From assembly GCA_036271555.1 (NCBI GenBank), contig DATBAK010000054.1, positions 1-38,260 of the forward strand: a stretch of 38,260 nucleotides of DNA, read 5' to 3'. The number at the start of each line of letters is the position of its first letter. Within the stretch, counting starts at the first letter, position 1. Positions 19,143 to 26,395 of this stretch are shown here, piece after piece. Origin of the DNA: Acidimicrobiia bacterium. Lineage in GTDB: Bacteria > Actinomycetota > Acidimicrobiia > IMCC26256 > PALSA-610. Under the pieces are notes generated by a model, which ran no database searches, was not told the origin of the DNA, and was given only the letters and a program-made list of their open reading frames with translations. Both the position numbers and the translations under genes were made by a program.

Positions 19143-20630
19143 ATGAGCAAATTTGCGGATCACATGAGCGATGCGGACGCGCTCATGTGGAACATCGAGA
19201 AGGACCCGGTGCTGCGGTCGACAATTGTCGCCGTAGGGCTGCTCGACCGCGCGCCCGACTTCGAGCGTCTGCGCCGCCGGCTCGCGCGGGCGAGCATCGC
19301 GATCCCGCGCCTGCGCCAGCGCGTGCTCTCACCGCCGCTGCGGTTGGGTCCGCCCCGCTGGGCGCACGAGCCCAACTTCGACCTCGACTTCCACCTCCGT
19401 CGCGTGCGCGCGGTGAAGCCCGGCGACCACCGCCAGCTGCTCGAGCTGGTCGCGCCGATCGCCCAGGCGAGCTTCGACCGCGCCCGCCCGCTGTGGGAGC
19501 TCACCATCGTCGAGGGCCTCGCCGGTCACCGGGCCGCGGCGGTCATGAAGGTGCACCACTCGGTGACCGACGGCGTCGGCGGCATCGACCTGCTGACCCA
19601 GGTCGTCGACCTCGAGCGCGACGCCGCGGAGCCCGCGCCCTTGCCCGAGCCCGACGCCGCGACATCGCTCGGCGCGCTCTCGTTGCTGCGCGATTCGCTG
19701 CAGCACAGCGCGCGCCGCGGTCTCGGCATCTCGCGACGCGTCCCGGCGATGCTCTCGCAGGCCGTCGTCGAGACGGCGCGCGACCCGCTGCGCGCCGCGG
19801 CCGGCGCGCTCGACACCGGCCGTTCGATCGGGCGCATGCTCGCACCCGCGACGGCACCGATGTCGGACGTGCTCGGCGAGCGCAGCCTCGGCCGCCGGCT
19901 CGACACGTTCGAGGTCCCTCTCGACGACCTGAAGCGCGCGGCCAAGGCGGTCGACGGCAGCGTGAACGACGCGTTCGTCGCCGCGGTCGTCGGCGGCCTC
20001 ACGCGCTACCACTCGCACCACGGGTCGGCGATCGGCGAGCTCCGCATGACGCTGCCGATCAACCTGCGCACCGCCGAGCACGACTCGGGCGGCAACCAGT
20101 TCGCGCCGGCGCGCTTCCCGGTGCCCGCGTCGATCGAGGATCCTGCGCAGCGCATGCGCGCGATCGGCGCACTCGTACGGGGCTGGCGCGCGGAGCCCGC
20201 GCTGCGCATGACCTCGACGCTCGCGGGCGTGCTGAACCGCCTGCCGACCGCAACCTCGACCGCGCTGTTCGGCAGCATGCTCAAGTGCGTCGACTTCGTG
20301 ACGTCGAACGTGCCCGGCGCGCCGATCCCGGTGTTCCTCGCGGGAGCCGAGGTCGACGGCTTCTACGCCTTCGCACCCCCGTCGGGCGCGGCGCTCAACG
20401 TCACGCTCGTCTCGCACTGTGATCGCTGCTGCATCGGGATCGTCACCGACACCGCCGCGGTCGCCGACCCCGACGTCCTCGTCGACTCGCTGCGCTCCGG
20501 GTTCGACGAGGTCTGTGCTCTTGGGTCGGGCTCGCACGCTTCGCCCTCCTCCACGCCTCCCTCGACGAGTCGGGCGGGCCGCACGGCGACCCGCCCGCCG
20601 TCGCAAGACCGTTCGACGCGTTCTGAATGA
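19143..20630 (+). CDS. Wax ester synthase/acyl-CoA:diacylglycerol acyltransferase (WS/DGAT)
   Basis: 495 aa; HHSVTDGVGG active-site motif; last ~35 aa (GSGSHASPSSTPPSTSRAGRTATRPPSQDRSTRSE) are encoded by a repeat copy. Confidence 0.8.
   Translation: MSKFADHMSDADALMWNIEKDPVLRSTIVAVGLLDRAPDFERLRRRLARASIAIPRLRQRVLSPPLRLGPPRWAHEPNFDLDFHLRRVRAVKPGDHRQLLELVAPIAQASFDRARPLWELTIVEGLAGHRAAAVMKVHHSVTDGVGGIDLLTQVVDLERDAAEPAPLPEPDAATSLGALSLLRDSLQHSARRGLGISRRVPAMLSQAVVETARDPLRAAAGALDTGRSIGRMLAPATAPMSDVLGERSLGRRLDTFEVPLDDLKRAAKAVDGSVNDAFVAAVVGGLTRYHSHHGSAIGELRMTLPINLRTAEHDSGGNQFAPARFPVPASIEDPAQRMRAIGALVRGWRAEPALRMTSTLAGVLNRLPTATSTALFGSMLKCVDFVTSNVPGAPIPVFLAGAEVDGFYAFAPPSGAALNVTLVSHCDRCCIGIVTDTAAVADPDVLVDSLRSGFDEVCALGSGSHASPSSTPPSTSRAGRTATRPPSQDRSTRSE
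20523..20605 (+). repeat. Dispersed intergenic repeat, type II copy
   Basis: gggtcgggctcgcacgcttcgccctcctccacgcctcc...gtcgggcgggccgcacggcgacccgcccgccg inside the 3' end of the WS/DGAT ORF. Confidence 0.65.
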
Positions 20631-22130: not shown

Positions 22131-22150
22131 AGGATCGCTAGCCTCGACCC

Positions 22151-23281
22151 GTGACCGACACGAGCACCGAGACCGCGATCAGCCTGCCGCCGGAGTTGCG
22201 GCCGTCGGACGGGCGCTTCGGGTCGGGGCCGTCGAAGGTGCGCCAGGACGCGATGGTCGCGCTCGCCGACGCCGCGCCGCGCTACATGGGCACGAGCCAC
22301 CGGCGCCCCACCGTGCGCAACGTCGTCCGGCGCGTGCGCGACGGGATGTCCGCTCTGTTCGCGCTGCCCGACGGCTACGAGGTGTTGCTCGGCAACGGCG
22401 GCTCGACCCTGTTCTGGGACGCGGCCGCGTTCGGACTCGTCGAATGGCGCGCGCAGCACCTCGTGTGCGGCGAGTTCTCGTCGAAGTTCGCGGCAGTGAC
22501 GCGCGCCGCGCCGCACCTCGAAGCTCCCGATGTGATCGAGAGCGCGCCCGGCGCCGCGCCCACGGCGCGCGCGAACGCCGACGTCGACGCGTACTGCTTC
22601 CCGCACAACGAGACGTCGACCGGCGTGATGTTGCCGGTCGCCCGTCCGAGCGACGACGGGCTCGTTCTCGTCGACGCGACCTCGGGCGCGGGTGGCCTGC
22701 GCGTCGATCCGCGTGCGTTCGACGTCTACTACTTCGCGCCGCAGAAGTGCTTCGCAGGCGATGCCGGCATCTGGATCGCGCTGTGCTCGCCCGCCGCGAT
22801 CGAGCGGATCGAGCGCATCGCGTCGTCCGGCCGTTGGGTGCCGCCGAGCCTCGATCTCGGCATCGCGCTCGAGCAATCCCGGCTCGATCAGACGTACAAC
22901 ACCCCCGCGCTCGCGACGCTCTTCCTGCTCGCGGATCAGCTCGAGTGGATGCTCGCGCAGGGCGGCCTCGAATGGGCTGCCGGTCGCTGCGACCGCTCGG
23001 CGGCGACGATCTACGACTGGGCGGATGCCGGAGCGCTGACGACACCCTTCGTCACCGACCCTGCGCTCCGGAGCCGCGTGACGGCCACGATCGACTTCGA
23101 CGGCGTCGACGCCGCGCAGATCGCGTCGACGCTGCGCACGAACGGCATCATCGACGTCGAGCCCTACCGCAAGCTCGGCCGCAACCAGCTACGCGTCGGC
23201 CTCTTCCCCGCGATCGAGCCCGACGACGTCGCCGTGCTCACGCGCGCGATCGACTACATCGCCGAGCGCCTCGCGGGTTGA
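22151..23281 (+). CDS. serC: Phosphoserine aminotransferase (actinobacterial SerC type)
   Basis: 376 aa; GNGGSTLFWDAA, FAPQKCF, TYNTPALATLFLL motifs of class-V aminotransferase SerC. Confidence 0.85.
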   Translation: MTDTSTETAISLPPELRPSDGRFGSGPSKVRQDAMVALADAAPRYMGTSHRRPTVRNVVRRVRDGMSALFALPDGYEVLLGNGGSTLFWDAAAFGLVEWRAQHLVCGEFSSKFAAVTRAAPHLEAPDVIESAPGAAPTARANADVDAYCFPHNETSTGVMLPVARPSDDGLVLVDATSGAGGLRVDPRAFDVYYFAPQKCFAGDAGIWIALCSPAAIERIERIASSGRWVPPSLDLGIALEQSRLDQTYNTPALATLFLLADQLEWMLAQGGLEWAAGRCDRSAATIYDWADAGALTTPFVTDPALRSRVTATIDFDGVDAAQIASTLRTNGIIDVEPYRKLGRNQLRVGLFPAIEPDDVAVLTRAIDYIAERLAG

Positions 23282-23312: not shown

Positions 23313-24746
23313 GTGAGCGGCGCGCTCCCCGACGGATTGGTCGCAGTGGTCAAACGCGACTGCCCTACCTGCACGCTCGTCGCTCCTGTTCTGCGCGACC
23401 TCGCGGCGCGCGGCGCACTGCGCGTCTACACGCAGGACGACCCGTCGTTCCCGCCCGGCATCGACGCGTGTGACGACACCGAGCTCGAGGTGTCGTTCGC
23501 GCTCGCGATCGACACCGTGCCGACGCTGCTGCGCGTCGAGCGGGGTGCGGTCACGAATCGCACCGAGGGCTGGTCGCGCGCGCGGTGGGAGGCACTCACC
23601 GGCTTCGCGGGCCTCGGCCCCGACCTCCCCGACCTCCGACCCGGTTGCGGCTCGCGCACGCACGACCCCGACGTCGCCGACGCGCATGCGATCGCGACGA
23701 TGGCGCCCCGGCTGCAGGCGCGTCCGGTCGAGCTCGGCGCCGCCGAGGACGACCAGGAAGCGATGTTCGCCCGGGGCTGGACCGACGGCCTTCCGGTCGT
23801 CCCGCCGACGGTCGCCCGCGTCGCGCGCATGCTCGCGGGCACGACGCGCGCGCCGGACGACATCGTCACGGTCGTGCCGCCCGACCTCGTCGAGTGCACG
23901 GTCGAGAAGGTCGCGATCAACGCGGTGCTCGCGGGCTGCCGACCCGAGTACCTGCCGGTGGTGCTGGCCGCGGTCGAGGCTGCGTGCACCGATCAGTTCA
24001 ACGCGCACGGGCTGCTCGCGACGACGTGGTTCTCGGGCCCGCTCGTGATCGTCAACGGTCCGATCGCGCGCGCGATCGGGATGAACTCCGGCGGCAACGC
24101 GCTCGGTCAGGGCAACCGCGCGAACGCGACGATCGGACGCGCGCTGCAACTCGTCGTCCGCAACGTCGGCGGTGGCCGTCCCGGCGAAGTCGACCGCGCG
24201 ACGCTCGGCAACCCCGGCAAGTACACGTTCTGCTTCGCCGAGGACGAGGCGGGTTCGCCGTGGGAGTCGCTCGCGGTCGAGCGCGGTATCGCGCGCGGAC
24301 GCTCGGCCGTCACGCTGTTCGCTGCGGAAGGCGTGCGCGGCGTCGTCGACCAGCTGTCGCGTGAGCCCGAGTCGCTCGCGCGCAGCTTCGCGGCCTGCCT
24401 GCGCACCGTCGCGCACCCGAAGCTCGCGATGGTGTGGGACGCGGTGCTCGTCGTCTCACCCGAGCACGCACGCGTCTTTCGCGAGGCAGGCTGGTCGAAG
24501 GCGCGTCTGCGGGAGGCCCTGAGCGCCGAGCTCCTGCTCGCGGGCGACGACATCGTCGCGGGCGCGCACGGCATCGCCGAGGGACTGCCGGCCGGCTTCG
24601 CGGGAACGTCGATCCCGAAGTTCCGCGATGGCGGGCTGCTCATCGTCCACGCCGGTGGCACCGCGGGCATGTTCTCGGCCATCATCGGCGGGTGGGCGAG
24701 CGGCGCGGTCGGGAGTGAGCCAGTGACCCGGGAGGTCGGTACGTGA
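23313..24746 (+). CDS. Thioredoxin-like (CPTC) N-domain fused to a large uncharacterized domain; candidate partner of UGSC protein
   Basis: 477 aa; N-terminal VAVVKRDCPTCTLVAPVL...IDTVPTLLRV thioredoxin-fold CxxC; remainder has normal composition but no motif I can name; GGGAGG RBS for downstream gene inside its 3' end; stop overlaps downstream GTG (GTGA). Confidence 0.55.
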   Translation: MSGALPDGLVAVVKRDCPTCTLVAPVLRDLAARGALRVYTQDDPSFPPGIDACDDTELEVSFALAIDTVPTLLRVERGAVTNRTEGWSRARWEALTGFAGLGPDLPDLRPGCGSRTHDPDVADAHAIATMAPRLQARPVELGAAEDDQEAMFARGWTDGLPVVPPTVARVARMLAGTTRAPDDIVTVVPPDLVECTVEKVAINAVLAGCRPEYLPVVLAAVEAACTDQFNAHGLLATTWFSGPLVIVNGPIARAIGMNSGGNALGQGNRANATIGRALQLVVRNVGGGRPGEVDRATLGNPGKYTFCFAEDEAGSPWESLAVERGIARGRSAVTLFAAEGVRGVVDQLSREPESLARSFAACLRTVAHPKLAMVWDAVLVVSPEHARVFREAGWSKARLREALSAELLLAGDDIVAGAHGIAEGLPAGFAGTSIPKFRDGGLLIVHAGGTAGMFSAIIGGWASGAVGSEPVTREVGT

Positions 24747-25279
24747 CCACGACGACCGTCGCGTCCGACGCCCGCGTGCTGCTCGATCCCACGTCGGAAC
24801 GGGCCCCGGCGGCGCGCGAGCGCGCGGCGCGGCCCGCGTCGATCGAGGGCGCGACCGTCGGCCTGCTCGACATCAGCAAGCCGCGCGGCAAGGTGTTCCT
24901 CGATCGCGTCGAGGAGCTGCTCGTCGCGCGCGGTCTGAAGGTCGAGCGCTACAGCAAGCCGACGTTCACGAAGCCTGCGCCCGCGGATCTACGGCACGAG
25001 ATCGCGACGAAGTGCGACCTCGTGATCGAAGCACTCGCCGACTGAGGATCGTGCACGTCGTGCAGTGTGCACGACACCGTGAACCTCGAGGCCGCCGGTG
25101 TGCCGATGGTGTTCGTCGCGTCGACCGAGTTCGTCGCGGCCGCCGACGCGCAGTCGCGCGCGCTCGGCGCCGACCCCGCGCGTGTCTTCGTCGCGCATCC
25201 GATCCAGGATCGAACCGACGACGAGCTGCGCGCGCTGGCCGACGCCGCGATCGACGACCTCGTCGCCGCGCTGCGCTGA
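24743..25279 (+). CDS. UGSC-motif selenoprotein candidate (178 aa with Sec at codon 101; in-frame TGA 25043-25045)
   Basis: ORF 24743..25045 ends ...VIEALAD-TGA and continues in the same frame as GSCTSCSVHDTVNLEAAG...DDLVAALR to TGA 25277; the 25067..25279 track ORF is this same frame; U-G-S-C followed by TSC; stable hairpin 11 nt after the TGA. Confidence 0.65.
25057..25075 (+). promoter_or_regulatory. SECIS-like stem-loop downstream of in-frame TGA
   Basis: GTCGTGCA-GTG-TGCACGAC, perfect 8-bp stem/3-nt loop starting 11 nt after TGA; local GTGCAC repeats allow alternative extended folds; resembles apical UGCA..UGCA stem of E. coli fdhF SECIS. Confidence 0.45.
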
Positions 25280-25299: not shown

Positions 25300-26277
25300 T
25301 CACTTCGACGCGTCGGCGATCGAGAACGCGCCGACGTTCGTGAAGCTCAGGCTCGTCACTCCCGACGCGCAGTCGCCGGTGGTCGGCGTCGCGTGCAGAA
25401 CCACCTCGAGAGTCGCGCCGGCGTCGGCGCCACTCGTGATCACGCCATGGAGACTGAGCTCGTAGGGATCGTCGCGGTTGTTCGTCGACGCGAGGTGCGC
25501 GCGCTTCAAGATCGACACGAAGTGGTTCGACCAGTCGATCTCGAGCATCCCGAAGAACCGCTGTTGCTTGCCGGGTGGGCACGTCACCGACGACGCATCG
25601 AGCGCGCCGATCACCGTGGCGGCGGGCGCGGTGTCGGCGGCCTGACAACCCGACACCTGGAACGATTCGAAGTGCAGGTGCTGGGCCGCGGCGCCGGCAA
25701 CGAGCCCGGGGCTGACCGTCGCGGACGCGGCGACGTCGTCGCAGCTCGCGTACGGGCCGCCGATCGTCATCGCGTTCGTGTTGTGCATCGTGATCGCGCC
25801 GACTCCGGCGCTGCAGTCACCGGTCTTGGGCACGAGGTCGAGGCGCACGCGCAGTGTCGCCCCCGTCTGGCTGCCACCGGTGACGCGACCGTCGAGCCGC
25901 ACTTCGAACCGGTCGTCGGGATTGCCGGTCGACGCGACGCGGGCGGCCCGGAGGTACGAGGTCGCGCCGTTGTTCCAGTCGATCTGCAAGGAGCCGCGCA
26001 GCCGGTCGGTCGGCGCGAGCGGACACGAAGCGGACGGGCTCGTCAGCGTTCCCGTTGCGGTCGCGGCCGCGCCGCCGACGTGGTCGCACTTCGAGACGCG
26101 GAACGTGTGCAGGTGGAGCTCGACGGGGCCGGCCGTCGCCTGCCACTTCGGCGTGAGCTGCGCCGCGCCGACGACCGACTTGCAGCGGGTCGGCGGGTTC
26201 GCAACCGATCCCGCGGGCGCGGCCGCGAGCGCCAACGCCGCGGTCGCCAGCATCGCCACGAGCCCGGTCCTCGCCAC
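25300..26277 (-). CDS. Secreted protein with internal tandem duplication of a ~140-aa 4-Cys domain (unknown function)
   Basis: Signal peptide LVAMLATAALALAAAPAGSVA; two repeats each with VELHLHTF/QHLHFESF, LQIDWNNGATSYL/LEIDWSNHFVSIL, GATLRV/GATLEV and 4 Cys; start GTG 26277 preferred (ATG 26331 lies inside a repeat copy). Confidence 0.55.
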   Translation of the reverse strand: MARTGLVAMLATAALALAAAPAGSVANPPTRCKSVVGAAQLTPKWQATAGPVELHLHTFRVSKCDHVGGAAATATGTLTSPSASCPLAPTDRLRGSLQIDWNNGATSYLRAARVASTGNPDDRFEVRLDGRVTGGSQTGATLRVRLDLVPKTGDCSAGVGAITMHNTNAMTIGGPYASCDDVAASATVSPGLVAGAAAQHLHFESFQVSGCQAADTAPAATVIGALDASSVTCPPGKQQRFFGMLEIDWSNHFVSILKRAHLASTNNRDDPYELSLHGVITSGADAGATLEVVLHATPTTGDCASGVTSLSFTNVGAFSIADASK

Positions 26278-26292
26278 CCGCCCGGTGTTCGA

Positions 26293-26395
26293 TGGTCGGG
26301 CTCGCACGCTTCGCCCTCCTCGTCGCCTCAACCGTCGCGTCCTACGCGAGCGAGCGTAGGGACCACCACGCTAAGTGGCGTCGGAGCGTGAGGCC
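26293..26395 (+). repeat. Dispersed intergenic repeat, type II copy with internal hairpin CCTACGC-GAGCGA-GCGTAGG
   Basis: tggtcgggctcgcacgcttcgccctcctcgtcgcctcaa...; hairpin at 26341-26360. Confidence 0.65.

Follow-up and report, generated by a model that had tools for sequence, protein, structure and literature searches.

The minimal selenocysteine (Sec) insertion sequence (SECIS) of Escherichia coli is an upper 17-nucleotide (nt) stem-loop (nt 15–31) that starts 11 nt from the UGA and carries a bulged U17 and the loop residues G23 and U24; unpairing the lower region of the E. coli element cuts read-through by ~25% (PMC8659212). The bacterial SECIS (bSECIS) model of bSECISearch describes an apical loop of 3–9 nt, an upper stem of 4–16 bp, a UGA-to-loop distance of 16–37 nt and a minimum free energy (MFE) of ≤ −7.5 kcal/mol, and places a G, mostly with G or U after it, within the first two apical-loop positions (PMC13188914). 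The UGSC-containing family emerged as a major aquatic selenoprotein family from analyses of the Sargasso Sea and of Global Ocean Sampling (GOS) data, the latter counting 255 Sec and 21 cysteine (Cys) members; selenoprotein genes detected in GOS had strong SECIS elements in general, and the SECIS of UGSC itself was not described there (PMC2398784). The family is named, as NF041046, in a current review (PMC13188914). Here we analyse a member of this family in a 38,260-nt stretch of DNA from an Acidimicrobiia bacterium (assembly GCA_036271555.1, contig DATBAK010000054.1; hereafter the window), in which a 19-nt hairpin at 25057–25075 is very probably the functional core of a bacterial SECIS within the UGSC family coding sequence (Table 1).

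A hairpin at fixed distance from the in-frame UGA of a UGSC family gene

The host gene is a full-scoring member of the UGSC family with Sec (U) in the UGSC motif. Its read-through product has 178 residues containing AD-U-GSCTSCSVHD (U-G-S-C-T-S-C at the Sec site) and scored 160.1 bits against NCBIfam NF041046 ‘UGSC family (seleno)protein’ (cutoff 125; residues 36–178, C substituted for U) and 158.7 bits against Pfam PF24696 (cutoff 25, E = 2e-46). Full-length Cys homologues are colinear with the read-through translation across the UGA site and align TGC or TGT to codon 101, and the true stop of the gene is the TGA at 25277–25279. Most of the best-scoring database entries stop at the UGA and are fragments of 97–100 amino acids (aa; about 100 of the 120 best matches listed). 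In other entries the Sec position is occupied by W or R (P0002, P0005 and P0004), and a different genetic code used in gene calling could explain those with W.

Counting from 25046, the first base after the TGA, an 11-nt spacer leads to a perfect 8-bp stem with a 3-nt loop; the spacer lies in coding sequence that aligns without gaps, which fixes its length. A preliminary description of this DNA had reported such a hairpin, likening its spacing, its apical UGCA…UGCA stem and its G/U-containing loop to those of fdhF. The sequence and coordinates proved exact, the spacing is the one known from the minimal SECIS of E. coli (PMC8659212) and nt 23 and 24, in the loop of each element, are G and U. 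The hairpin is present in the MFE and centroid folds of both 25040–25110 and 25043–25090, where seven of its pairs have probabilities of 0.98–0.997 and the closing A-U has 0.65; folded alone, the 19 nt have a ΔG of −10.9 kcal/mol.

Table 1. Coordinates of the UGSC SECIS and associated features in the window
Feature	Position	Strand	Details
Conserved partner gene, 477 aa	23313–24746	+	Stop overlaps UGSC start by 4 nt (GTGA)
UGSC family selenoprotein gene	24743–25279	+	GTG start, 178 codons, Sec (U) at codon 101
In-frame UGA read as Sec	25043–25045	+	In frame with GTG 24743
Spacer from UGA to base of SECIS hairpin	25046–25056	+	11 nt; codons Gly-Ser-Cys and first two bases of Thr
SECIS apical hairpin, 5′ arm, GUCGUGCA	25057–25064	+	nt 15–22 counted from U of UGA
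Apical loop G23-U24-G25 (GUG)	25065–25067	+	Presumed SelB contact
SECIS apical hairpin, 3′ arm, UGCACGAC	25068–25075	+	nt 26–33
Predicted extended helix (window sequence only)	25043–25088	+	Lower stem UGAGG/CCUCG and UCGUG/CCGUGA enclosing apical hairpin

Conservation of the hairpin depends on the UGA

Homologous loci were collected in Sec (TGA) and Cys forms. A scan of one genome per species gave 80 loci, nearly all from Acidimicrobiia-type metagenome-assembled genomes, and a metagenome scan seeded with Cys-type homologues gave 8 further TGA forms together with TGC and TGT forms; one Cys form close to the window was taken from a contig look-up. After removal of duplicates, 88 TGA forms (window included) and 26 Cys forms remained, the homologous codon being TGA in 80/80 genome loci and in the 8 metagenome loci and TGC or TGT in the 26 distinct Cys forms.

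The hairpin is kept in all 88 distinct UGA-containing orthologues while synonymous sites around it vary freely, and the apical loop lies at nt 23–25 in the MFE structure of 80 of them, so that the conservation and loop position on which the preliminary description had staked its case are both borne out. The 19-mer is identical in 64/88 distinct orthologues whose proteins are only about 50–95% identical, and pairing of the 5′ arm is kept in 97.9% of cells (83 distinct rows). In TGA forms, the hairpin codons +4 to +10 (T S C S V H D) have relative codon entropies of 0–0.16, His excepted (ACG 78/82, TCG 76/80, TGC 88/88, AGT 88/88, GTG 78/78 and GAC 87/88); the His codon, at 0.54, is the covarying partner described below. 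Other conserved codons of the UGSC gene have relative entropies of mostly ~0.3–1.0, and synonymous choice is free both in the spacer codons (Gly GGC/GGG/GGA/GGT, Ser AGC/TCG/AGT/TCC and Cys TGC/TGT) and in conserved codons after the hairpin.

The same seven codons have relative entropies of 0.62–0.96 in the 26 Cys forms, and there the hairpin is lost. The mean ΔG of the 19-nt core is −10.3 kcal/mol in Sec forms versus −3.0 kcal/mol in Cys forms (Mann-Whitney p = 1e-15), and the hairpin appears in the MFE structure of 80/88 Sec forms versus 9/26 Cys forms. The AGT Ser codon that supplies A22-G23-U24 occurs in 88/88 TGA forms versus 1/26 Cys forms, and the neighbouring Ser +2 is AGT in only 17/88 TGA forms. 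The hairpin is thus under nucleotide-level purifying selection that depends on the presence of the UGA, and this comparison of 88 TGA-form and 26 Cys-form sequences places it far beyond chance.

What variation there is among TGA forms leaves the loop G and U intact. Loop position 25 is G in 78, C in 6 and U in 4 sequences; Leu (CUG/UUG) in place of Val alters this position alone, and in two loci (L120 and L122) a UCG codon opens the closing pair to give a 5-nt loop, AGUUC, in which G23-U24 is retained. At codons +7 and +8 (25064–25069), TGA forms have AGU for Ser +7 and NUG (Val/Leu, rarely UCG) at +8, whereas Cys forms have UCN or AGC for Ser +7 and ACN (Thr) at +8. The RNA requirement therefore appears, from these alignments, to shape the protein sequence at both positions.

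Two loci have lost the UGA and kept the SECIS core sequence: L129:1229–1285, where the codon is TGT (Cys) and identity extends over ACGTCGTGCAGTGTGCACGAC, and L130:774–833, where it is GGA (Gly). Both could be fossils of a SECIS, left when Sec was recently lost, or the product of single-base errors in sequencing.

The register of the hairpin is such that third positions of codons face each other in the stem. The third-position pair of Ser(+5) and His(+9), 25060–25072, is G-C in 77, G-U in 6 and A-U in 5 sequences; it is never broken and A·C never occurs. Nearest neighbours point to at least three origins of the A-U state (the L041/L047/L072 clade, L018 and L077), with G-C in the neighbours L050 (94–96% identical to the L041/L047/L072 clade) and L051 (neighbour of L077), and to the G-U state arising in five lineages.

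Observations that weigh against a SECIS

Several observations count against reading the hairpin as a SECIS, and the first concerns chance. Judged on the window by itself, the hairpin does not stand out statistically: the window (71% G+C) holds 37 perfect 8-bp hairpins with 3–9-nt loops on the + strand, about one per kb, where dinucleotide shuffles give an expectation of 28.9 ± 6.3, and folding gives modest z-scores of −0.85 over 71 nt and −2.25 over 48 nt. A genuine SECIS, that of E. coli fdhF, does no better (z = −0.67), so single-sequence thermodynamics cannot decide.

Local pairing also has a competitor. The preliminary description had allowed for alternative pairings in this palindromic region and for extended ones with a bulged U; the latter find no comparative support, whereas an alternative does exist, pairing UCGUGCAC at 25049–25056 with GUGCACGA at 25067–25074 (−11.9 versus −12.4 kcal/mol). 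This hairpin is the MFE structure if 25043–80 alone is folded and in four orthologues that share TCG-TGC codons (L003, L017, L038 and L069). Its ensemble probability is 0.3% in a 51-nt context, it depends on codon choices that are not conserved, and its 5′ arm would sit inside the ribosome once the UGA occupied the A site.

Covariation is confined to one of the eight pairs, four being invariant and three departing by unpaired cells only, and the support for that one pair (Fisher p = 1.2e-5), like the shuffle statistics, overstates independence because the sequences are related. Invariant pairs are uninformative by covariation, and their invariance at freely degenerate sites is itself a signal.

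The element also departs from described SECIS sequences. It is without the bulged U17 needed by E. coli SelB, nt 17 being a C paired with G31, and the consensus of the 88 sequences has no bulge. Rfam SECIS families were matched neither at the gathering threshold in the whole window nor at E ≤ 10 in 24990–25140, where a permissive scan returned only chance microRNA and small nucleolar RNA matches. Comparison with SECIS covariance models, to which the preliminary description had looked for support, thus failed to give it: SECIS_2 (RF01988) and SECIS_3 (RF01989) detect E. coli fdhF, the positive control, at 87.1 and 35.8 bits but do not detect the UGSC hairpin, which places the element outside those Rfam sequence families, although it would work as their members do. 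A covariance model built from the 88 sequences (R1) mainly re-finds homologous coding sequence at other loci and adds little; its second match in the window (20132–20183, + strand, 20.4 bits), in a WS/DGAT gene, has CGA rather than TGA, is out of frame and was rejected as a chance match.

Finally, no tRNA gene was found anywhere in the 38-kb window, no SelB homologue was found in it by tblastn with the SelB of a relative, and no sel family was found among the 22 window proteins scanned with Pfam, all from open reading frames (ORFs) beyond ~12,900. With no selA, selB, selC or selD found in the parts searched, the Sec trait of the source organism is putative. Close relatives do decode UGA as Sec, as indicated by selB and tRNA-Sec in five related TGA-form loci (L015, L035, L051, L055 and L077). 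The tRNA-Sec of these loci has the anticodon tca (ARAGORN) and scores 61–66 bits on RF01852 (gathering score 47), and their SelB has the winged-helix domain PF09107 (56.6 bits) and the beta-barrel domain PF25461. The C-terminal part of selB and a divergent tRNA-Sec lie immediately upstream of the partner–UGSC operon (L015:15–1489 and the same region of the other four), and in this clade the Sec machinery is physically linked to the gene pair.

Alternative explanations

The functional unit could be larger than the apical hairpin, comprising the whole ~46-nt helix 25043–25088 with the UGA in its lower stem, as in the full 40-nt fdhF SECIS. In the 48-nt MFE structure (ViennaRNA, −20.5 kcal/mol) the window does have 10 extra enclosing pairs that take in the UGA, most orthologue MFE structures have 7–11, and the effect of the lower region on read-through in E. 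coli (PMC8659212) points the same way. However, the RNAalifold consensus of the 88 sequences lacks the lower stem and retains the apical 6 bp alone, and synonymous sites on either side are free to vary. When flanks were shuffled around an unchanged core, folding was slightly better for the shuffled than for the natural sequences (−19.5 versus −18.2 kcal/mol, Wilcoxon p = 4e-4), so lower pairing of this kind is expected by chance where flanks are GC-rich. The extended helix is probably not a selected feature, and we regard it as unlikely to be the functional unit.

A conserved structure need not be a SECIS, and the palindrome might serve another purpose, either as a DNA-level protein or restriction site or as a hairpin for mRNA stability or regulation. 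GTGCAC is a perfect DNA palindrome with two local copies, and the comparative data show that structure, not function, is conserved. Yet conservation is strictly tied to the UGA, the two one-off exceptions (L129 and L130) carrying fossil sequence, and the position and loop composition match the SECIS model exactly. G-U pairs form only in the sense-strand RNA, and their toleration at the Ser-His pair places the structure there rather than in DNA or antisense RNA; moreover, the exact core motif TGCAGTNTGCA is found once only in the window. Another purpose is very improbable on these grounds.

The hairpin might also be a by-product of the self-complementary peptide S-C-S-V-H-D (UCN UGY AGY GUN CAY GAY) and GC-rich codon bias, with no RNA function. 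Its first and second codon positions are necessarily self-complementary, the motif xGSCTSCSxHD is conserved in Cys forms too, and the central pair is still in the MFE structure of 9/26 of them. But Cys forms spell almost the same peptide with every synonymous codon and have lost the hairpin, whereas TGA forms freeze these codons; AGT is fixed in TGA forms although codon bias does not favour it (as its frequency at Ser +2 indicates), and changes at the third-position pair are compensated with no A·C; a mere by-product of the peptide has very little chance of being the explanation. The idea that the TGA is a true stop between tandem genes (100 aa, and ~70 aa from GTG 25067), with the hairpin as terminator, attenuator or translational coupling device, fits the split made here by gene callers, the predominance of fragments in databases and the GTG in the loop, but it has next to no chance of being right given full-length Cys homologues and curated family models that span the site, a frame and peptide (GSCTSC) conserved between TGA and GTG 25067 in 88 sequences, no U run after the stem, and selB and selC adjoining the operon in relatives.

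Gene neighbourhood and predicted folds

The partner gene and the UGSC gene look like one operon, and the partner lies directly upstream of UGSC in 84/87 Sec-form and 25/26 Cys-form loci (tblastn). The partner protein matched no Pfam or NCBIfam family and found no match in a PDB sequence search; it has at least 8,000 homologues, among which the 120 best listed are 72–93% identical to it and carry no Pfam domain. In an AlphaFold2 (AF2) model searched with Foldseek, its N-terminal ~100 residues form a thioredoxin fold with CPTC (alignments of ~90–110 columns to ~105-residue thioredoxins), and the protein also has a large uncharacterised domain; about residues 200–477 had no PDB match. An ‘Unknown_1’ domain has been reported fused to UGSC in GOS (PMC2398784), and the partner protein may correspond to it. 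It is plausible that the partner acts as reductant of a UGSC selenenylsulfide.

The UGSC sequence itself had no match in a search against PDB. The AF2 model of the Cys homologue P0001, which was modelled in place of the window protein, is a five-stranded alpha/beta sandwich (predicted local distance difference test (pLDDT) 88, predicted template modelling score (pTM) 0.83) with weak Foldseek similarity only, to flavodoxin and lumazine-synthase-like folds (TM 0.4–0.5). To the extent that these weak matches of a Cys homologue model indicate the family fold, it is a flavodoxin-like alpha/beta sandwich, and not thioredoxin-like as had been guessed in 2008.

A class-V aminotransferase-like ORF (22142–23281, + strand; PF00266, 49.5 bits) immediately precedes the partner gene, an adjacency kept in only 8/87 related loci. 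The class-V aminotransferase family includes cysteine desulfurases and selenocysteine lyases. A convergent ORF downstream (25300–26370, − strand, 343–356 aa) has a hydrophobic, signal-peptide-like N-terminal stretch and, by eye, apparently two internal repeats of ~150 aa; it had no Pfam match and no counterpart in related loci.

Proposed mechanism and implications

By analogy with the E. coli and Moorella paradigm, we infer that SelB binds this hairpin, that G23 and U24 take part and that Sec is inserted. When a ribosome reaches the UGA, its mRNA channel would cover the first 12–15 downstream nt, so that the hairpin, which begins at nt 15, would stand where the mRNA enters. SelB, loaded with GTP and Sec-tRNA(Sec), would then use its C-terminal winged-helix domain to bind the G23-U24 loop and the adjoining UGCA/UGCA stem, and the ternary complex tethered beside the A site would outcompete RF2 and decode the UGA as Sec. 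Translation would then melt the hairpin and proceed to the true stop.

A SECIS in a UGSC gene is expected, combining a known mechanism with a known selenoprotein family, and the understanding of Sec decoding is unchanged by it. What is new is modest: a near-invariant 19-mer, the E. coli G23/U24 register without a bulged U, the absence from Rfam and the apparent effect of RNA on protein. For annotation, the locus should be described as one 178-residue selenoprotein rather than two fragments, and a covariance model of the UGSC SECIS could re-annotate many metagenome UGSC genes that are split at the UGA. The UGA and Cys forms of a single family provide a natural control in which a coding-region RNA signal can be seen to freeze synonymous sites and bias amino acids, and the 19-mer with G/U at nt 23–24 offers a marker for UGSC selenoproteins and for SelB specificity in uncultured Acidimicrobiia.

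Comparison with known selenoprotein systems

Among selenoproteins outside its family, the UGSC protein has a weak local match to GrdB (glycine reductase selenoprotein B, TIGR01917; E = 0.004, residues 87–142 against profile positions 333–387). GrdB shares the UxxCxxC spacing. However, the match reaches 16 bits against a cutoff of 602, covers ~55 residues and comes with different gene partners, and homology is not established. A PrdA/PrdB- or GrdE/GrdB-like pair was considered and rejected: only the weak GrdB match was found, and Pfam, searched down to E ≤ 10, matched neither protein to Gly_reductase or GRDB.

The RNA element itself resembles the fdhF SECIS of E. coli. Both elements lie in the coding region directly 3′ of the Sec UGA, both upper hairpins begin after the same spacer (25046–25056 in the window), and the loop G and U fall at the same positions (25065 and 25066 in the window). 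They share the 3′ arm U26-G27-C28-A29-C30, letter for letter and in the same register, and an apical UGCA/UGCA stem (UUGCA-GGUC-UGCAC in fdhF, GUGCA-GUG-UGCAC in the window), and in both the lower stem seems dispensable. The fdhF SECIS used for this comparison is 100% identical under fdhF in 5,419/5,426 E. coli genomes. The window element differs in its loop of 3 nt (GUG; GUC or GUU in relatives) rather than 4 nt (GGUC), in its length of 19 nt (nt 15–33) rather than 17 nt, with a perfect 8-bp stem in place of one bulged at U17, and in its host, an Acidimicrobiia-like actinobacterium.

Set against the bSECIS model, the loop of 3 nt, the stem of 8 bp, the loop start GU and the UGA-to-loop distance of 19 nt (25046–25064) all lie within the described ranges, as do the energies of the 19-nt hairpin alone (−10.9 kcal/mol) and of the 48-nt fold (−20.5 kcal/mol), and the element stands directly 3′ of an in-frame UGA in a selenoprotein coding sequence that has Cys homologues. 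It is, however, far more sequence-constrained than that model requires. We therefore lean towards regarding the UGSC SECIS as a distinct, family-specific bSECIS class: near-invariant, absent from Rfam, perfectly paired in the stem without a bulged U and capped by a 3-nt GUN loop, in which the need for the RNA appears to shape the protein and a G23/U24 register as in E. coli would imply that SelB–ribosome geometry is conserved across Proteobacteria and Acidimicrobiia.

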